This document shows positions 4,279 to 20,604 of a stretch of DNA of 42,709 bases, one piece after another. The stretch spans positions 1 to 42,709 of the IMG/VR virus record IMGVR_UViG_2922326829_000003. One strand, given 5' to 3'. This DNA is from a virus. Lineage: Duplodnaviria; Heunggongvirae; Uroviricota; Caudoviricetes. The position numbers were made by a program, and so were the translations under genes. The notes under the pieces were generated by a model. The model had not been told where the DNA came from and made no database searches. It was given only the letters and a program-made list of their open reading frames with translations. Position 1 is the stretch's first letter, and each line of letters begins with the position of its first letter.

Positions 4279-4289
4279 AAAAACAAATT

Positions 4290-4508
4290 ATGGAAGCAAA
4301 GTTTAAAAAGGGAGACAATGCAGTTATAAACAATCATCCTAACTCTGAAATGATTGGAAAAACAGTTTTAATTGAAGTTGTTGGACACGCTAAATTTAAA
4401 GAAGGTGCTGGATTTGAGGACCAAGCTGTCTACCGAGTTTCATTGAATGGCAAGAATCTTGGCTGGGCACCAGAAGAAGATTTGTCGATCCATTCTGGAA
4501 ATTTCTAA
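4290..4508 (+). CDS. hypothetical protein (SH3/YorP-like beta barrel?)
   Basis: KFKKGD.AVI...IGKTVLI...Y.V.L..W..EEDL pattern. Confidence 0.6.
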   Translation: MEAKFKKGDNAVINNHPNSEMIGKTVLIEVVGHAKFKEGAGFEDQAVYRVSLNGKNLGWAPEEDLSIHSGNF

Positions 4509-11966: not shown

Positions 11967-12470
11967 TTAAATATTTTCAACCATTAATAATAATTTTTCT
12001 TCAAATTCTTCTACTGTTCCGTTATTTTCAATCACATGTTTGTATAACAGATCATTTACTTGAATTCTATTCGAGTCTCTTTCAATTCTTTCCTTTGCAA
12101 CGCTTGCTGCAATTTTCTCATTGTTACGGTCAATATATACGGCATGTATTTCTGTAAAATTAGCGTATATCAAGTCTTTCAACCCTTTTTCATCAACTAC
12201 ATAGACACATAATGAATCATCTGGAACTTGGCTGAAAGTTGCCCAATAATGATAACCACCATAATATGTGTACGCCATCATTTCAAGCATGTCCGGCATG
12301 TCTTTCTCAGATACAAAATGATGTTCAACTCCATTTGTTTCCCCTTCTCTCATTGGACGTGTTGTATAAGACACGATGTCTGGAACCCCAGCTTTCTTTT
12401 TGAGAATTTGCGTTGCCAATGTTTTACCAGCCCCAGATGGGCCTACAATTGCGATAATTCCTAATTTCAT
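11967..12470 (-). CDS. gmk: guanylate kinase-like protein
   Basis: GPSGAGKT P-loop; VSYTTRPMREGETNGVEHHFVS signature. Confidence 0.88.
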   Translation of the reverse strand: MKLGIIAIVGPSGAGKTLATQILKKKAGVPDIVSYTTRPMREGETNGVEHHFVSEKDMPDMLEMMAYTYYGGYHYWATFSQVPDDSLCVYVVDEKGLKDLIYANFTEIHAVYIDRNNEKIAASVAKERIERDSNRIQVNDLLYKHVIENNGTVEEFEEKLLLMVENI

Positions 12471-14652
12471 AATACTTCTACAATCGAATTTTTAGTAAAC
12501 TGTAAACTATTCTTTCCCGAATAATCGCTGTACTTTACGATAGCCGAGAATATTATCAATTTGTCTTTTGCATTCAATAGTTTCCCTCTATTGTCAGCAT
12601 ATTCGCCAGGCCAAATAACACATTCGCAAGTGTCATTATTTTGCTGTAACACCATTTTACAAAATGTTTCAGTGTCTCCTGTTTTCTTATTTTTGAATTT
12701 TTTTTCTTCGATTTCTACAATAGTCGCACAAATTGCTACTTTTTTACCCTCTTCTTCTAATGGGGCTATTCCCTGTAAGGTAGAATAGGAAGCTTTTCCT
12801 CTAATAGCAGTTTTTGCTTCTGAGTTATCATAAATACGTTTGTAATCAATAGCTCCGATTCCTGAAACTTTCACCTGTTGCTGTGACCAGAAATAATGCT
12901 TGTTTCTCATTTCAATCGGAATATCTTTTTCTTTAATCTCAAACCCTAATCGATTTGCTGCTTTTTCAAGTATGGCGTAGCGTTCAACAACTGATTCTGC
13001 TTTCTCTATCTTGTCGAAACATCCAGCCAAAATAAGATTAGAAACATGTCTGGCATTAACTGGACATCTCTCCACTTCATCTTCATTATCCGGATCATCC
13101 CAGTATTCATATTTTTTCAACTTGTATTTGAAAACTCGATCTATAAAATTTTCAATACTGGTGAAATCCCCATTTTTATTGCGTTCCCCAACAATCCAAC
13201 TTACCGCCTTTGTCCCAAGTTGTTTTATACGTGACAAAGACCAGAAAATAGAATTGGAGGCATAATCAGTGTAAAATTTTTCTTCACTAACATTTATATC
13301 TGGAGGTACAACTTTCGCATTGCTACACGCTTCCATTTCCCCCATTAATGTAACAAGTTCATCGTCATCAGCCCACTGTAAAGCCACTGTATAAAATGCA
13401 GTTGGGTAATTTGCTTTAAGGAAAGCTCCTACATAAGATGTTACTGCATAAGCGGTAGCATGTGATTTATTAAATAAATAGCTTCCACATGCCTCAATTT
13501 GATTCCAGAGAGCGATTGCATCTTCATTTGGGCAACCATTTTTCTTAGCGCCTTCCATGAACTTGCTTTTCATTTCTTGAATTTTATCTGTCTTCTTTTT
13601 TGAAATTAGCTTTACCAGCTTCACACCATCTCCAAGAGAGAAATCACCGACTTCTCTGGAGATTAAAACCACCTGTTCCTGATAAGTAATCAAACCATAA
13701 GTGTCCTTCAGTGCATTGTAAGTCCCCCAAAGATATGTCGGAGCCACTAACCCACTCTTACAATCAATATATGCTTCTGTTGATCCATTTTCTAAGGTGG
13801 CTGGACGATACAATGCGTTCGCTGCAATTAGGTCATTGATGCACGTAGGTTTCATGCTAACCAAGAATTTAGTCATCCCCCTTGAAGCAAACTGGAAAAC
13901 GTTTTGTGTAAATCCTTGCGCCAATAGCTCGTAAGCTTTTGCGTTATCTAAATCGCTTGTTGCAATTAATTCTAATGATAAGTTTGTTCCATATTCACGG
14001 TTACAGATATTCATTGTTGATTGCAGCTTAGATAGTTCTTTTGTGGCCAAGCAGTCATTTTTCAATAAGCCAAGCTCATCCAACTCATAGCCATCATTCT
14101 CAGAAACTAAAATTCCGTCAACTTTTTTGATGGGGATAAAATCAAAACATTCCGCACTCTCCCCATCCTTTTCGTCTGGCGTTACAAGTAGGGCCGATGC
14201 GTGAATTGAAGCTGAACGTGGCTGAAACATTAATGTTCGAATATCTTCAAATAAATCAGGGTAATCTTCAACGAACTTAGCAACCTTTCTGTTTTCAGCT
14301 GCTAACTTGAATATGCCTGTAAAATCACATTTGTCATCATCAAATATAGCTGTTAGATAATTAACCAATTGTGGGGGTATACGTTTTGTTCGCCCAACAT
14401 CTTTCAATACCGCTTTTACTTTCAATGTAGTCAATGTTCCTGCTGAGAATACACGTTGCTTTCCATTATAATTATAACGGGTTTCAATATATTCTTTTAT
14501 TTCACCCCTTCTATCTGACTGAAAATCAATATCTACATCCGACCTTACGGCAGGGAGCCATTGGCTCCCTGCAAATACCCTCCATCAACGAAGCAATCAA
14601 GAACATTGACCGACTTCGTACTTTTAATTTGTTTTACATTTAAAATTTTCAT
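12467..14652 (-). CDS. dnaE: DNA polymerase III alpha (DnaE) C-terminal half, interrupted by an 8-nt insertion at 14540-14547
   Basis: ATG at 14652 gives 35 codons ending GSLP then TAA. The frame resumes 8 nt later with DVDIDF...SIHASA...KNDCL...ITYQEQV...FNKSHATAY and a C-terminal OB fold (690 aa); joined product 725 aa. Confidence 0.88.
14540..14547 (-). other. 8-nt coding gap TAAGGTCG between CCG (Pro35) and GAT (Asp); candidate translational bypass site
   Basis: CTG CCG [TAAGGTCG] GAT GTA GAT ATT GAT TTT; exact removal restores the PDxDxDF catalytic motif. Confidence 0.6.
14550..14572. repeat. 23-bp palindrome (perfect 10-bp stem, 3-nt loop) within coding sequence
   Basis: GCAGGGAGCC-AAT-GGCTCCCTGC, ending at the first base of the CCG codon before the gap. 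Confidence 0.9.
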
Positions 14653-15185
14653 TTGAAATAAGTTTTATTGTTAACTATGTTACATATTGTTTGCTTATGG
14701 ACACCATAAGTTGCAGCTAAGTCTTTTTGCAAAACACCCTTGGAGTGTTGTTCCCTGATTTCAGCAGCTTGTTGATTTGTCAGCTTTGCATTAGTACTTA
14801 ATTCTCCATAATCATTTTTAAGCATGTTTGCTACCGAATGATCTATGTTTACCTGATGCGTAACAACCTCTAAATTGGCGGCTCTATTGTCAAATCTTAC
14901 TCCATTTTTATGATTGACTTCTAATTTTGAATTTGTATCTAACTCTAAAAACACAATAGCCACCAGCCTATGTATCAAAAATTTATGTGTACAGTTGTAC
15001 TTGCTTAATTGAATGCTTAAATAGTTGCATGTTGCGCCTTTAAATGGTGTTAGTACCCTTCCTTTACAAAACTGAATTGTCCCATCACTTTTGTCAACAT
15101 ACCTATCAACACTTCTAACGTTACCATTATTACTTACTTGATAGTATCCTTCATATTCAGGAATATCTTTCCAAACTTCTTTCAT
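14649..15185 (-). CDS. free-standing NUMOD4-HNH homing endonuclease (I-HmuI-like) with C-terminal HTH
   Basis: EVWKDIPEYEGYYQVSNNGNVRS (NUMOD4); IHRLVA...VNHKNG...DNRAANLE (HNH); ATGA overlap with the dnaE-C start. Confidence 0.9.
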   Translation of the reverse strand: MKEVWKDIPEYEGYYQVSNNGNVRSVDRYVDKSDGTIQFCKGRVLTPFKGATCNYLSIQLSKYNCTHKFLIHRLVAIVFLELDTNSKLEVNHKNGVRFDNRAANLEVVTHQVNIDHSVANMLKNDYGELSTNAKLTNQQAAEIREQHSKGVLQKDLAATYGVHKQTICNIVNNKTYFK

Positions 15186-15186
15186 T

Positions 15187-16485
15187 CTATGTTTTCATAC
15201 AACTACTGTTAAAAAAGTTATTTGCTTTTTTATAAGCTTTTTCAAATTGAAGTAATTCATAATCTGGAATAATGTGTCGTTTATCAATAAAGGTATCCGA
15301 AACAATGCCTTCCAGTGTCCTGCATCGACTTAAAGCTACATAAATTTGCCCTGGACAGAAAACACCTTGGGTGTGTATAACCACACGATCAAAAGTTAAC
15401 CCTTGGCTCTTATGAATAGTAATGGCCCACGCTAAAGTGATAGGAAACTGCGTGCAGCTACCTTTTTCTTTTGCTGTTATTTCTCCATCTTCCATCTTAT
15501 ATTCATAAGTTACCCACTTGCATTTTGAGATTCCAACAGTTGATCCATTATCTAATTTTATAACTATAGTCTTATCATCAATGCTTTCAACTACCCCAAG
15601 TGTGCCATTACAATACTGTTGGAATCGATCATTTACCAGTATCATAACACGTGCGTCCTTTCTAACCATAAGTTTGCGATCACATGGAGCGCTATTTAAT
15701 GAGAAATCACCTTCAACCTCTGCATAAAATGTATGAGTCGGCTCTCCCAACATAGTTTCATTGATATTCTGAACGTCCTTTTTATGAGTGCAGATATGAA
15801 TGTATTGGTTGTCAAATTTGTCACTAATCTTTTTATTTCTCAGCTCTTCCAATTCTTCTAAATCACTATTAGTGATCTTGTATTCACGAATATTATTCAA
15901 AAGTTCAATGAATCTCGGTTCTGATTGTCGAAATATGCGATTTAGCTCTACTATGTGAAAACCATTCTCTTGGAATGCTTTTGCATAGAAAAAGTAAATC
16001 CCACTGTAAAACTGCAATAAGATAGATTTTTCATCATCAAGAACAACTGGTGGCAATTGAAATAGGTCTCCAAACATGATGACCTGAACCCCACCAAAAG
16101 GAAGAGAGCAGTTTCTACATATTTGCAATCTCCTATTTATGAAATCTAATACATCAGGGCGTACCATGCTGATTTCATCAATAACAAGAACCTCCATTGA
16201 ATTAAGTATTTCCGCTTTTTCCTGACTTATGGTTGATTTGATACTTGTATAAGGATTTATAGGTCCAAATGGGATATTGAACAAACTATGAAGAGTTACA
16301 CCACCTGCATTTATAGCTGCAACGCCGGTTGGAGCGGCTATAAGAAACTGTTTTTGAACTGTTTCTTTTATATACCTCAACAGAGTCGTCTTTCCAGTAC
16401 CCGCTTTTCCTGTTATATATATTGTCGAATTTGTATTATTAATCAAATCCAACGCTTCTTTCATTTCATCTGTAATTGTTATCAT
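15187..16485 (-). CDS. Pif1/RecD-like SF1B helicase
   Basis: ITGKAGTGKT, APTGVAA, IDEISM, FGDLFQLPPV, FRQ, QFP..LAWAITIHKSQGLT, YVALSR. Confidence 0.92.
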   Translation of the reverse strand: MITITDEMKEALDLINNTNSTIYITGKAGTGKTTLLRYIKETVQKQFLIAAPTGVAAINAGGVTLHSLFNIPFGPINPYTSIKSTISQEKAEILNSMEVLVIDEISMVRPDVLDFINRRLQICRNCSLPFGGVQVIMFGDLFQLPPVVLDDEKSILLQFYSGIYFFYAKAFQENGFHIVELNRIFRQSEPRFIELLNNIREYKITNSDLEELEELRNKKISDKFDNQYIHICTHKKDVQNINETMLGEPTHTFYAEVEGDFSLNSAPCDRKLMVRKDARVMILVNDRFQQYCNGTLGVVESIDDKTIVIKLDNGSTVGISKCKWVTYEYKMEDGEITAKEKGSCTQFPITLAWAITIHKSQGLTFDRVVIHTQGVFCPGQIYVALSRCRTLEGIVSDTFIDKRHIIPDYELLQFEKAYKKANNFFNSSCMKT

Positions 16486-16488
16486 GGT

Positions 16489-18201
16489 TTATAACTCATT
16501 TATGGTAAATAAAACATCTCTGTTGTCAAACAGAATATCATCCCCTTCCTGTATCTCATCAGCATATACTACTATTGAATCATGTTCCGCTTCTCTCTTT
16601 ACGATTAATTCGGCATCCTTATCTACTTTGATTGTTTTTCCGTTTTCAAGAGTGATTTCAATGAAATCGTTCGATGAAATATCCTCAGATATAATAGTTG
16701 TTTCAGAGGGATACAAACCCGCTCTTTCCGGAAGAAGAAATCGTTCAAAAATCAAGTCGTATTTTATCGGATCAATTAAAGTTATGCCTAACAAAAATAA
16801 CAGTAGTGAACCAGCAGCTGACCCACGGCCACACCCTACCAATATACCATTTTGTCTTGCCCAGTTGCATGTGTCATACTGCACAAGAAGGTAGTCTACA
16901 TTGTTTGTAGACTCAATGATATATTTTTCATATTCCATTTGTTTCCGGTACTGTTCTTCTTTACCTTTCGGCACCAATCGCTCAAACCCTTCATCTAAAA
17001 GTTGATTAAACATATTATGAGCACTTCCATATTTCCTGGCTTCTTCCAGAGTCAGGTCATATTTAGGCATGAAATTTCGAGTATTGTCAAACCGGGCATT
17101 TGCGTTTTCCAGTATATCCATTGAGTTATCACAACATTCTTGAAATAATGCTGGAATATCCCATTTTTCACTATCAAACAATTGCTCAAACAAACTGTAA
17201 TGATCATCAACATCTTTGTAAAACTGTTCCTCACTTTGTTCGTGAGCAGCGCCTTCTGCGACTTTGTTTAAAATGATTTTATTCTTTGCATCATCTCGGT
17301 CGAGATAATAACAATCGGTCAGAAGTACTGGTGGAAGATCGAATTCTTTATCTTGATATATTTCATCAAAATATAGTTTAGCTGCGTTCAAGACTTTAAC
17401 ATCAATCCTCTCAGCCTTATATTCTGATAAATCAACCTGAAAGAAAACATCAATGAAATTGTCTTGTAAATCCCAGACAGCTTCCTTATTGTCTTTAATC
17501 CAAAAAGAAGAATATTTATTTAAAACAATAATATTTCCATCACCGCGACGAATAAGCTCATCAAATTGAATAGTTTTATCAGAACTATCGACCATAATAG
17601 CCTTTTGAATTCTCAACAGATTTTGCAGCCCTTTCTGCGTCTGCACATAGACTTTAGCTCCAATTTTGTTTTCACCTTCAATGAAATTCAACGAATACCC
17701 AAAGACAAATTTTAGGTTTTTCGCTTCACATTCTTTTTGAAGGTTAAAGCAGGCAGCCATGGTATTCTGGTCACATATTCCAATACCAGGATGTCTGCAA
17801 AATTGTGCTTTTTCTACCCATGACTTCGGCATAAAGCTTCCATTAAGCAATTCATAGGGGGTGTGGATACCCAAGTTTGCATATTCAAACTGTTGTGATG
17901 GTGGTACTTTTTCACCAATATACTTTAGAATATTAAGCTTGAAATCTTTGCGTAAATCTGTATAATAGAAATTATTGCCAAATTTAAAAACAGCATAATT
18001 AATACCTTCTTCAATTAATACAGATGGCTGTTCCATGCTGTTAAATACCAGAGCGCCATCTTTATTTTTTTTAAAAATAGATTGGATTTTATCGGTATCT
18101 TCAAAAAACATTTTTCCAAAACCGATTATTTCAATTACTTCATCATCAATCACTTTATATGAAACCTTATTAGTGATCAACCATTCTATCAATTCTTTCA
18201 T
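16489..18201 (-). CDS. dnaE: DNA polymerase III alpha (DnaE) N-terminal half (PHP domain) ending in an intein-N-like segment
   Basis: HTPYELLNGS, GICD, DCYYL, GCGRGSAAGSL, DPIKYDLIFERFLLPER; last 75 aa Hint-like. Confidence 0.9.
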   Translation of the reverse strand: MKELIEWLITNKVSYKVIDDEVIEIIGFGKMFFEDTDKIQSIFKKNKDGALVFNSMEQPSVLIEEGINYAVFKFGNNFYYTDLRKDFKLNILKYIGEKVPPSQQFEYANLGIHTPYELLNGSFMPKSWVEKAQFCRHPGIGICDQNTMAACFNLQKECEAKNLKFVFGYSLNFIEGENKIGAKVYVQTQKGLQNLLRIQKAIMVDSSDKTIQFDELIRRGDGNIIVLNKYSSFWIKDNKEAVWDLQDNFIDVFFQVDLSEYKAERIDVKVLNAAKLYFDEIYQDKEFDLPPVLLTDCYYLDRDDAKNKIILNKVAEGAAHEQSEEQFYKDVDDHYSLFEQLFDSEKWDIPALFQECCDNSMDILENANARFDNTRNFMPKYDLTLEEARKYGSAHNMFNQLLDEGFERLVPKGKEEQYRKQMEYEKYIIESTNNVDYLLVQYDTCNWARQNGILVGCGRGSAAGSLLLFLLGITLIDPIKYDLIFERFLLPERAGLYPSETTIISEDISSNDFIEITLENGKTIKVDKDAELIVKREAEHDSIVVYADEIQEGDDILFDNRDVLFTINEL

Positions 18202-19238
18202 AACTGAATAGTGTTTAATTTATATTCCACTGGGGTCTTTAAGTTTGAAGAAAAGACATCATAAATATCCCAAAAATCCATACTATCAAAATCGGCATCT
18301 GGAAGGTCAATATACGCTATAAAAGTGTCGAAATACTCATTCAACTGCATTGCAGTGTTATTTATAGCCTCAACTGCATCACCATCATATCCGAGAACAA
18401 CGGTTTTTACACCCTTTGTTTGTAGTTTGTAGATTTGAGTTTGTGAGATTTTCTTTCCGAAAGTCGCAACAACGGCAACTCGCTCATTGTCATACAATTC
18501 AAGCTTACGAGTCAAAGCAACAACATCAAATACTCCTTCAACAATGATTACAGTGTCTGTTTCATCTTCAATCACACTATCGTAGTTATACAATAGTTTT
18601 GAAAAATCATTTTCCATACTGTTGTTGTATCGCCTGATTTCATATTTACCAGCTCGTCTTGCTTTCCGGTTGTAGTCTTCAATTTTATCTTTCGACCAGA
18701 TATGTCTTGATATATACCCTACAATATCACCATTATCAATAATGGGGAATACTACATAATTCTCAAATTTAAAATTCAAACCACGCGTAGTGCCAACTGG
18801 GAAATAATCATAGTCATCGCTTGTAAATCCACGTTCTTTTAGGTAAGGATTCTTAAAGCATTTCTTCCACCCTTCAGGCATTTCTACAACAGATAACTCA
18901 TCGTCAATTTCGTTTTCATCATCCAACTGAAAGAAAGGGTTTTGTTCAGTTATTGGTCGAAAATCAGCAGTTTCAACCAGTTTCAAATCCGAACGGCCAA
19001 TATCTTCCAGTAGTTGATTGATGTCTTTTGTTGTATGCCCACACGAAAAACAGTGACTAACAAACAGCTTTTTCTTATCAGTTTCTTTGCCAATATATAT
19101 GCCAAATTTTCCACCTTCTTTGCCGCAATAAGGGCATCTGGGAGCAATAAGATTTTTATTACCCCCATCAGGTTTAGCGTGCAACTCTATTGACAATTCA
19201 CTAATAAGATGCTCTCTATCTTGTTTCGTAATAACCAT
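18198..19238 (-). CDS. DNA primase (Zn finger plus TOPRIM)
   Basis: CPYC...HCFSC; IIVEGVFD; VLGYDGDA. Confidence 0.85.
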   Translation of the reverse strand: MVITKQDREHLISELSIELHAKPDGGNKNLIAPRCPYCGKEGGKFGIYIGKETDKKKLFVSHCFSCGHTTKDINQLLEDIGRSDLKLVETADFRPITEQNPFFQLDDENEIDDELSVVEMPEGWKKCFKNPYLKERGFTSDDYDYFPVGTTRGLNFKFENYVVFPIIDNGDIVGYISRHIWSKDKIEDYNRKARRAGKYEIRRYNNSMENDFSKLLYNYDSVIEDETDTVIIVEGVFDVVALTRKLELYDNERVAVVATFGKKISQTQIYKLQTKGVKTVVLGYDGDAVEAINNTAMQLNEYFDTFIAYIDLPDADFDSMDFWDIYDVFSSNLKTPVEYKLNTIQL

Positions 19239-19245
19239 AATGCAA

Positions 19246-20604
19246 CTAATTTACTTTGTTGAGATTTAGTGTTCTAACAGGATCATAAAATTGTTCGGAG
19301 TTGTAGTCTGTTGCAATTTTAAATGGCTCTCCTTTTTCAAAAAAACGACTTTTAGCAACATAGAGCCGCATAACTCGTTCTTTTCTTTCTCGGTCGCTCT
19401 GATTTAAAGTAATCAGATGTGTCATTGGACGAGCCAGACCTTTCGCTTCAGCGCAATTATATTCGGTAAGAACATTTTTCTCATCATTCAGCCAGTCCCT
19501 ATTTTCTATAGTCGCTTGATATGTTCCGACCATCCAAACTTTCTCGTCCGCAGCTAAATCTTTCAAATCATTAGCCACAGCTATTCTTTGATGCCGGGTG
19601 CCATTCTCGCTCCATTTTTTGCCGCTGGAATCAGTAAGCAAGTCTATCGAATCAATTATCACCACATCTGGGTTAATACCATATCTTTTCCTAAATTCGC
19701 CAATACCATTTTTTACATCAATGGTAGAAACTTTGGTATTGAATTTTGGATAAGACTTAACAAACAACGCCCCGGATACAGATTGAATCATTTCTTCCAT
19801 TTTGGCGATATCCGCATCACGCAATGTGCCAGTTTCATAACGAAATGTGTTGCAAGCAACCAATGATGCGGAATAAGCATTAGCAACTTCATCTTCACTT
19901 CCTTCTAACTGAAAATGGAGAACATTGAGCCCATCGATTTGACAAGCGCATTTTCCAATCCATCTGGCCGCATGACTTTTACCAACTCCGGTAGGTGCAA
20001 GAAAACAGGACAGCTGTGTTCTTAGTTCCCTGCCTTCATTCATTACATCAAGGTCATCTATGTAAAATCTGGTAATCGGAGATAATTTGTTTTCTGAATT
20101 ATGTCTTTGCCTGTTTGCTTTGAATCTTTGTCCAAATGTTCCCAACACATCAATGAATTCCGATGACCTCAAACTGAACGAGTTAACCCAGTCAACGTAT
20201 TCGTGCATTTTATCAGAAGAGCCTTTATGATCTTGTTGTACGAAAAGTTTTCCAACTTCCTGATACATTTTTTGGAACCTTACTTGCTTAATATATTCTT
20301 CTAACTGCTCTAATAGAACTTCAGATTCTATTGGAGAAGCAGTGTCATAAATATCTTCTAATAATATGGATGCACCTCTATTGCTCACCATCATTTGTTT
20401 CAAAACGCTATATGATGGAGATTTTTTGTATGATTGAAAATACTCACAGAGATAATTATGCAATGCCTGAAAGTCCCGGTCTGGAAGATATTCTTTTTTT
20501 AAATGCTCTGAAACAACCCCAAGTATGTAGTCGTTTTCCATACAGGTCATAAACAGGTCCATAAGAAACTCCGGCGTTAACACATTATTCTTTTGGTTTG
20601 CCAT
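19246..20604 (-). CDS. replicative DnaB-like (SF4) helicase
   Basis: APTGVGKS Walker A; FQLEGS; VIIDSIDL; YQAT; VAKSR. Confidence 0.85.
   Translation of the reverse strand: MANQKNNVLTPEFLMDLFMTCMENDYILGVVSEHLKKEYLPDRDFQALHNYLCEYFQSYKKSPSYSVLKQMMVSNRGASILLEDIYDTASPIESEVLLEQLEEYIKQVRFQKMYQEVGKLFVQQDHKGSSDKMHEYVDWVNSFSLRSSEFIDVLGTFGQRFKANRQRHNSENKLSPITRFYIDDLDVMNEGRELRTQLSCFLAPTGVGKSHAARWIGKCACQIDGLNVLHFQLEGSEDEVANAYSASLVACNTFRYETGTLRDADIAKMEEMIQSVSGALFVKSYPKFNTKVSTIDVKNGIGEFRKRYGINPDVVIIDSIDLLTDSSGKKWSENGTRHQRIAVANDLKDLAADEKVWMVGTYQATIENRDWLNDEKNVLTEYNCAEAKGLARPMTHLITLNQSDRERKERVMRLYVAKSRFFEKGEPFKIATDYNSEQFYDPVRTLNLNKVN

Follow-up and report, generated by a model that had tools for sequence, protein, structure and literature searches.

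A stop-led insert of a few nucleotides in a split DnaE gene of gut Bacteroidales phages as a candidate site of very short ribosomal bypassing

The DNA analysed in this work, referred to throughout as the window, is the whole of IMG/VR virus record IMGVR_UViG_2922326829_000003 (Caudoviricetes; positions 1 to 42,709, 42,709 nucleotides (nt)), a prophage sequence located in a 320-kb contig of a 4.4-Mb gut Bacteroidales genome. On its minus strand, the gene for the C-terminal half (C-half) of a split DnaE-type DNA polymerase is interrupted just before its catalytic aspartates by 8 nt that begin with a stop codon and change the reading frame. Stop-led inserts of 7, 8 or 12 nt were found at the same junction in related phages, in genes that are under purifying selection and behind a hairpin that covaries, and the probable explanation, as judged from comparison of sequences, is a programmed, very short, frame-independent translational bypass (a 'stop-hop') across the insert.

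The interrupted gene opens with a leader open reading frame (ORF) of 35 sense codons (14548..14652, minus strand; ATG at 14652-14650 plus 34 codons), which is an N-terminal extension of the DnaE C-half, is kept in all relatives and ends with GGC TCC CTG CCG (...GSLP). The last of these, the putative take-off codon CCG (Pro; 14548..14550, minus strand), is followed directly by the presumptive untranslated gap TAAGGTCG (8 nt; 14540..14547, minus strand), consisting of the stop codon TAA (14547-14545), then GG and then the landing-like triplet TCG (14542-14540). After the gap, the coding sequence continues from 14539 in the +2 frame with GAT GTA GAT ATT GAT TTT and runs for 690 codons (GAT plus 689) to a stop codon at 12467-12469. 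This C-half body (12467..14539, minus strand; resume codon GAT at 14539-14537) contains the catalytic DVDIDF, the rest of the palm, the fingers and HhH, and it covers positions 104-260 of the pol III alpha profile (Pfam DNA_pol3_alpha 104-260, DNA_pol3_finger and HHH_6). The leader, CCG, the adjacent TAA, the 8-nt gap, TCG, the 690-codon frame and the 10-base-pair (bp) stem described below had all been proposed in a first-pass annotation of this DNA, and each was found where that annotation had placed it. The earliest canonical start codon in the downstream frame is TTG 14434, located 35 codons beyond the catalytic motif, and the motif therefore cannot be produced by ordinary initiation.

In the nearest isolate, Bacteroides phage BS-TP1, whose C-half is 77% identical to that of the window, the same junction reads GGT TCA CTC CCT GAT GTG GAC in a single frame with no insert, and the HNH gene described below is absent between the helicase and the C-half. 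The continuous junction peptide of this phage, ...GSLP DVDNDF, bears out the earlier claim that the 8 nt interrupt the catalytic motif. The insert is missing at this junction in BS-TP1 and 89 other loci, and on this comparison the 8 nt of the window are a genuine insertion. Zero Rfam families matched across 14300-14800 (E up to 1), and megablast against phage records gave no match, relatives being found at the protein level only.

Scans of viral, genome and metagenome contigs yielded 141 related loci, and the junction was readable in 124 of them; some contigs occur in two collections, and distinctness was judged on 1-kb sequences. At 35 of the 124 loci, representing 25 distinct sequences and 11 alleles, an insert lies exactly between the Pro and Asp codons, and the junction is uninterrupted at the other 89 (60 distinct sequences), with the form ...(S/A)L(P/A)-D(V/I)D. 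The alleles are of 7 nt (TAAGCTG, TAAGGCG, TGAAGCG, TGAGACG, TGAGCCG and TGAGTCG), 8 nt (TAAGGCCG, TAAGGCTG, TAAGGTCG and TAGGGCCG) and 12 nt (TAAGGAAGACTG), which require frame relations of +1, +2 and 0, respectively. Gap length differs by one base in close kin: it is 8 nt in L111 but 7 nt in L112, and 8 nt in the window but 7 nt in its sister clade (L011/L014/L085). The window allele is shared with the lineage of L040, in which the C-half is 64% identical in protein.

Three features of the insert are constant among carriers. The codon before it is CCG in 35 of 35 loci, and at insert-less junctions all four Pro codons occur, with CCG in 11 of 46 distinct sequences. The first insert triplet is always a stop codon (35/35 loci, 11/11 alleles), with TAA, TGA and TAG all represented. 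The last two bases are YG in every allele; among NCN codons in these ORFs, only 17% end in G. By allele, the landing triplet is CCG in three, TCG in two, GCG in two, ACG in one and CTG in three. The first-pass annotation had described the landing triplet as a 2/3 match to the take-off codon; the TCG that it cited is present in the window, but across alleles only YG is fixed. A last triplet in which the third base is fixed and the first is free (T, C, G or A) is the reverse of the pattern of a translated codon. A pairing option that is conserved joins CCG with YGG (the last two insert bases and the G of GAY), whereas the GCC-GUAA-GGU GNRA hairpin earlier drawn over the stop codon is not conserved in the other alleles. 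No canonical start codon occurs between the stop and the catalytic motif, and no in-frame ATG, GTG or TTG occurs before or within the motif in any allele.

Junctions of two further kinds were recorded among the relatives. At L145 (a 2.3-kb contig; 1800-1830), an in-frame TGA replaces the Leu codon before Pro (GGT TCC TGA CCA GAT), and at L105 (2960-3000) a frame break lies within a G7 run of the leader; both may be errors of low-coverage assemblies.

The ORF downstream of the insert is intact in every carrier. Ratios of nonsynonymous to synonymous substitution rates (dN/dS) between carriers were 0.059 for L011/L014, 0.028 for L011/L085, 0.009 for L111/L112, 0.043 for L035/L048 (dS 0.46), 0.068 for L040/L094 (dS 0.95) and 0.038 for L062/L126 (dS 0.70), the last two loci both carrying the in-frame 12-nt allele. 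By these measures, the C-half with its insert is a functional gene under strong purifying selection. In nine contigs of one lineage (L058-L061, L069, L129 and L131-L133), two more frame breaks were seen within the C-half, at residues ~159 and ~312 (e.g. L058:3810-3840 and 4280-4310). Each break falls in an A7 run that is A6 or interrupted in the relative L055, and the two could reflect transcriptional slippage, true frameshift or a shared sequencing error.

A stem-loop of 10 bp with a 3-nt loop precedes the gap (14550..14572, minus strand; arms 14572-14563 and 14559-14550, loop AAT 14562-14560). The stem is perfect, and its 3' arm runs through the codons for Ser and Leu to end on the first C of CCG. 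The minimum free energy (MFE) of the window hairpin is -20.8 to -20.9 kcal/mol (z = -2.7 versus shuffles), and it is the sole perfect GC-rich hairpin of at least 9 bp with a loop of 3-6 nt across the ~110-kb prophage region. Stems are 9-10 bp in all carriers, and the 30 nt ending at the Pro codon have an MFE of -17.7 to -21.0 kcal/mol in 35 of 35; in the 89 insert-less loci the same 30 nt have an MFE of -2.6 to -14.6 kcal/mol, and the two ranges do not overlap. Covariation was scored on 11 distinct carrier stems: 97% of cells are paired, double compensatory changes occur in 5 of 10 pairs, and the score was reached by 0 of 500 shuffles, with slid registers nowhere near it. The first-pass annotation had left recurrence as a matter to be settled by alignment of related phages; in that alignment, insert and stem recur in independent genomes, with purifying selection downstream.

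A matched contrast is provided by L034, which has a 7-nt insert, and L106, which has none. These loci are ~100% identical over 1.1 kb save for the insert and five synonymous substitutions inside 20 nt (from L106 to L034: GGG to GGA, TCT to TCC, GCA to GCC, CTT to CTG and CCA to CCG). Each of the five either contributes to the stem or produces CCG, and both loci encode the same peptide, QGGHSALP; the element is therefore a discrete RNA-level cassette of ~30 nt written over an unchanged protein sequence. L056 and L128 have no insert, yet the 30 nt before the Asp codon contain a stem of 7 bp (-14.6 kcal/mol) and the Pro codon is CCG; this state may be a precursor, or a revertant that has lost the gap.

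A frame-independent hop fits best because gaps of 7, 8 and 12 nt need three frame relations, and these switch among close kin. Re-pairing of the CCG-decoding tRNA just before GAY is moreover the only reading that gives all of the phages the protein of their insert-less relatives, and CCG cannot re-pair in the +1 (CGU) or -1 (GCC) frame. About a quarter of the relatives have the cassette of ~30 nt at the end of the leader, comprising synonymous changes that build the 9-10-bp hairpin, CCG, and a stop-led insert of 7, 8 or 12 nt ending in YG. In the mechanism that we propose, the ribosome would pause with peptidyl-tRNA-Pro on CCG in the P site and the stop codon in the A site. Peptide release is slow when proline is the C-terminal residue. 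At this stage, the E site and the exit channel would be taken up by the 3' arm of the hairpin. In gene 60 of phage T4, refolding of a 5' stem-loop upon exit of the mRNA promotes forward movement; here, the hairpin refolding behind the ribosome would draw the mRNA forward, and its closure would need ~7-8 nt to be pulled through, which is the stride observed. The tRNA would then release and re-pair at NCG or CUG 7-8 (or 12) nt downstream, and decoding would restart at GAY to yield ...GSLP-DVDIDF..., a protein identical to that of insert-less phages. The host encodes tRNA-Pro(CGG), for which pairing is full at CCG, includes a G-U wobble at TCG or CTG, and comprises 2/3 bases at GCG or ACG. The first-pass annotation had proposed just such a hop, short and programmed, starting at CCG with help from the 5' stem, and the recurrence of the insert, the co-varying stem and the purifying selection all argue for it.

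Several observations count against a hop. Expression across the gap is the point to which the comparisons lead, and the hop itself, with every step beyond such expression, is something that we infer. A perfectly matched CCG landing triplet is present in only 3 of 11 alleles, and landing on GCG or ACG would leave the first codon position mismatched (G-G or G-A). Conservation of YG could also have another source, either pairing of CCG with YGG in the mRNA or a microhomology scar. A take-off stem-loop and a nascent-peptide signal both matter in gene 60. The gap described here has no take-off stem-loop, at most a 3-bp CCG:YGG pairing being possible, and there is no sign of an element-specific nascent-peptide signal, the leader peptide being the same in L034 with the insert and L106 without it. 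The 3' arm of the stem would lie inside the ribosome at take-off, and the pulling model draws on geometry for its plausibility. Linkage to the HNH gene is also loose, as that gene is present in 6 of 35 insert loci versus 4 of 89 insert-less loci.

Ordinary recoding would account for the same genes by a +1 shift in the 7-nt alleles, a +2 or -1 shift in the 8-nt alleles and stop readthrough in the 12-nt allele, with 2-4 residues added between Pro and the first catalytic Asp. An A-site stop after the P-site codon is the classic 'shifty stop' context, the alternative frames in the gaps are free of stops, and the final triplet of the gap, if translated, would add a small residue (Ser, Ala, Thr or Pro) or Leu. 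We nonetheless consider recoding unlikely: it calls for three mechanisms at one homologous site, switching in close kin (L111/L112; window versus L011); the failure of CCG to re-pair as CGU (+1) or GCC (-1) bears directly on it; the last triplet, with its third base always G and its first base variable, is the opposite of a translated codon; and bacteria seldom read through UAA efficiently, yet carriers of the 12-nt allele have kept it to dS 0.70 at a dN/dS of 0.038. The -1 frameshift that the first-pass annotation had offered as an alternative (...LPAVRSDVD...) was rejected, as nothing about the context of CCG is slippery and such a shift would not serve the alleles of 7 and 12 nt. If the gap were instead lost at the RNA level, through a hairpin-guided cut-and-ligate reaction or through realignment of RNA polymerase between the CG...YG repeats, the mRNA would be continuous, and the conserved hairpin immediately 5' of the gap and the 2-nt repeats at its edges (CG...CG in 8 alleles) would be in keeping with this. 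Such loss appears very unlikely, given that we know of no micro-excision system of this kind in bacteria or phages, that no Rfam family was matched, and that the invariant leading stop and CCG, which are central to the ribosomal model, would play no part.

Synthesis of two products, with a 35-residue leader released at the stop codon and the C-half body restarted by non-canonical re-initiation, is highly improbable. The gap is purine-rich (AAGG, GAG, AGGG) and loosely Shine-Dalgarno (SD)-like, and a freed leader could in principle bind the tail of the N-terminal half (N-half) of the polymerase, but the lack of an in-frame start before or within the motif extends to every allele, the purine run lies 0-3 nt from GAY and is too near for an SD element, Bacteroidota use SD little, and a start at the downstream ATT or ATA would drop the first catalytic Asp. 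We give almost no credence to the view that the insert kills the C-half, as an immunity scar, by prophage decay or as an assembly artefact, with the host polymerase carrying out replication. Although the location of the window in a prophage within a 320-kb contig would suit a dead gene, the 25 distinct carrier sequences derive from independent assemblies, some carrier pairs have diverged to dS >0.4, the stem covaries, CCG, the stop and YG are conserved, and the adjoining replication genes are intact. Because the downstream ORFs are all intact with dN/dS of 0.01-0.07 and the insert recurs in independent assemblies, decay, assembly error and uniqueness to one genome are excluded, which removes both the dead-prophage and the assembly-error alternatives of the first-pass annotation.

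A likely reason for the cassette is found directly upstream, where a free-standing NUMOD4-HNH homing-endonuclease gene (14649..15185, minus strand; Pfam NUMOD4 E=1.5e-16, HNH_3 E=6.7e-7) ends in a TGA stop that overlaps the leader ATG (ATGA). In phage T4, the 50-nt gap protects gene 60 from MobA, and by analogy the gap in the DnaE gene would protect the DNA from the HNH endonuclease: the insert and the synonymous changes together would destroy the target of the upstream-encoded enzyme and leave the polymerase unchanged, and the cassette would thus confer immunity. An HNH homologue lies directly upstream in six insert loci (the window, L011/L083, L016, L112 and L001), and remnants comprising ~30-120 nt of its 3' end are present in L014 and L015; the four HNH-bearing insert-less loci are all of one clade. 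The insert must change state 10-13 times on a tree built from the first 285 residues of the C-half. Where otherwise close pairs differ in the insert, the sequence surrounding the junction diverges over ~30-100 nt (L040/L115, L016/L019 and L111/L079), in the manner of gene conversion; by these patterns the cassette behaves as mobile DNA. The slot between the DnaE halves also holds other cargo in some relatives, namely a GIY-YIG/NUMOD1 nuclease gene in L017 (4670-5893), Bro-N or Bro-N/ANT genes in L040 (5360-5872) and L094 (2081-2872), and a Dam-like methyltransferase gene in L076 (1396-1998).

The polymerase itself is, by its profile matches, a fractured gene that is broken a few residues before the catalytic aspartates. 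The N-half (570 amino acids (aa); 16489..18201, minus strand) contains PHP and the first part of the palm (Pfam PHP; DNA_pol3_alpha 3-99 of 260) and ends with ...FERFLLPERAGLYP (...ERAGLYP), followed by a 72-aa Hint/intein-like tail (codons 16492-16707, minus strand). A 432-aa upstream ORF was considered as the N-half and rejected on its Pfam match to PIF1 helicase, the 570-aa ORF beyond it being the N-half; this PIF1/Dda-like SF1 helicase gene (15187..16485, minus strand; Pfam PIF1 E=1e-29) lies between the DnaE halves in one clade of relatives and is missing from the other. In order along the minus strand, the replication module as assigned with Pfam consists of a DnaB-like helicase (19246-20604), a Toprim primase (18198-19238), the DnaE N-half (16489-18201), the PIF1/Dda-like helicase (15187-16485), the NUMOD4-HNH gene (14649-15185), the DnaE C-half, a guanylate kinase and a 3'-5' exonuclease.

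The tail of the N-half matches Pfam Intein_splicing at E=3e-4 and Hint at E=0.009, both below the curated cut-offs. Its AlphaFold model is all beta (pLDDT 61), and inteins or Hedgehog Hint domains are 9 of the 10 best Foldseek matches, with weak E values of 0.3-1; a search of the tail profile against PDB sequences gave no match. The tail and the 35-aa leader are present in all 124 relatives, and the splicing residues (Cys/Ser1, the block B TxxH, the terminal (H)N and the +1 Cys/Ser/Thr) are missing in every one: the residue that opens the tail, after LY(P/Q/S/K), is A, S, T or D, TxxH is replaced by DKDA, and the leader ends with SLP and is followed by Asp. An active split intein joining the halves was accordingly rejected. 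Tail and leader may be degenerate split-intein halves that act as a non-covalent clamp holding the two polypeptides together. The first-pass reading of the 35-codon leader would be amended in this respect, as it appears to be a Hint/intein-like N-terminal extension of a fractured DnaE, of which the N-half likewise ends ...GLYP.

In-frame inteins were found elsewhere in the C-half. Those at residue ~357 bear HNH (L052, 7066-7911; also L051, L053, L055, L077-L080 and L125), and at residue ~294 there is a LAGLIDADG intein in L076 (2993-4000) and a mini-intein in L056 (6883-7266); this polymerase is a hot spot for selfish elements. Outside the window, tRNA-Phe(GAA) genes at contig positions 11263-11337 and 117568-117642 lie ~106 kb apart and probably bracket a prophage of ~106 kb. 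A cluster of tRNA genes (Met, Phe, Asn, Trp and Ser) at contig 117.2-119.4 kb, near the far prophage end, includes neither tRNA-Pro nor a suppressor tRNA, and the window has no tRNA genes. The gene set would fit the 'Gratiaviridae' described in PMC8008677.

The T4 gene 60 bypass and the MobA HNH element are said to have been described by Huang in 1988 and Bonocora in 2011. The DnaE locus resembles gene 60/MobA in that an essential replication-type gene is in two parts, each with an added tail; an HNH gene stands free between them and overlaps the beginning of the latter half; a stop-led untranslated insert follows shortly downstream in a conserved motif, with a 5' stem-loop; and loss of the endonuclease with retention of the gap is frequent, another nuclease taking the slot in some relatives (GIY-YIG in L017). 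It differs in that the gap is 7-12 nt rather than 20-50 nt and take-off would be from CCG (Pro) rather than GGA (Gly); in having no take-off stem-loop in the gap, no element-specific peptide signal and a landing triplet that is often imperfect; and in having no SD-like element at the right spacing, as the purine runs (AAGG, GAG) of the 7- and 8-nt alleles come within 0-1 nt of the landing triplet. The sequence has no homology to gene 60, the gene here encodes the DnaE palm and the host phylum is Bacteroidota, and in this DnaE family the split and the tails are universal and the gap is patchy. For the MobA element, Manning & Atkins (bioRxiv 10.1101/2022.08.31.505936) describe a split gene with tails in which the nuclease comes and goes and the gap outlives it, and the published gene 60-type family is restricted to genes for the Topo II large subunit (same reference).

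Stop-hops and short tRNA hopping have been produced in the laboratory in E. coli (Weiss 1987; O'Connor 1989; reviewed in PMC5009743), and no natural in-frame stop-hop was known at the time of that review, in 2016. As proposed here, peptidyl-tRNA in those experiments quits a stop-adjacent codon and re-pairs a few bases on, over a short distance and independently of frame; the laboratory hops are of low efficiency, synthetic and between matched codons, whereas the DnaE site is natural, conserved and mobile and has a dedicated hairpin. A terminase gene, that of Streptomyces phage Hau3, contains a candidate bypass (PMC10732093), and mitochondria of Magnusiomyces have the 'byps' (Lang 2014, as cited in that paper). 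Both are likewise natural coding gaps skipped at a slow-to-decode A-site codon with mRNA structure near; they involve a rare UUA codon or inserts of 27-55 nt, in other genes and organisms, with no link to a homing endonuclease. The +1 frameshift of prfB shares the use of a zero-frame A-site stop as a pause signal, but its relation is fixed at +1 and it has a slippery CUU_U and an upstream SD, whereas here the relation varies (7, 8 or 12 nt) and CCG offers no +1 re-pairing. Fractured genes with split inteins and an inserted endonuclease gene were described by Dassa (2009; PMC2677866). In those loci as in the present one, a replication gene is broken at a conserved site, each fragment carries a Hint-like half, and an endonuclease gene stands free between the two; the loci of Dassa have no coding gap, and here the splicing residues are missing, such that the DnaE halves probably associate without splicing. 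In full-text literature searches, no description of a DnaE bypass or of a natural short stop-hop was found. The element thus shares the logic of gene 60 yet fails several of its defining features, having no take-off stem-loop, no spaced SD and no homology.

On balance, we lean towards the view that these loci represent a new minimal class of mobile bypass cassette of ~30 nt, made up of a 10-bp hairpin, CCG, a stop, 4-9 bases and YG. Bacteroidota ribosomes would hop across it with a stride of 7-8 nt set by refolding of the hairpin at the mRNA exit and not by a take-off stem-loop or a cassette-specific peptide signal. The cassette would have spread among gut phages by homing-driven gene conversion as immunity of the most conserved motif of the polymerase, and the 12-nt allele would be the first natural in-frame stop-hop.

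Programmed bypassing is known almost wholly from T4 gene 60 and its homologues, an elaborate system in one gene family. If the reading proposed here is true, the DnaE cassette would be an independent and far simpler natural bypass system. The 11 natural alleles and the matched insert-less controls form a ready-made mutational series, and the minimal needs for ribosome release and re-pairing, including refolding of the mRNA at the exit as the driver, would become directly testable. The selfish-DNA strategy in which an untranslated insert gives protection from a homing endonuclease would then reach a new gene and a new phylum. Gene callers split or discard such polymerase genes in common phages of the human gut, and annotation pipelines should recognise the pattern.

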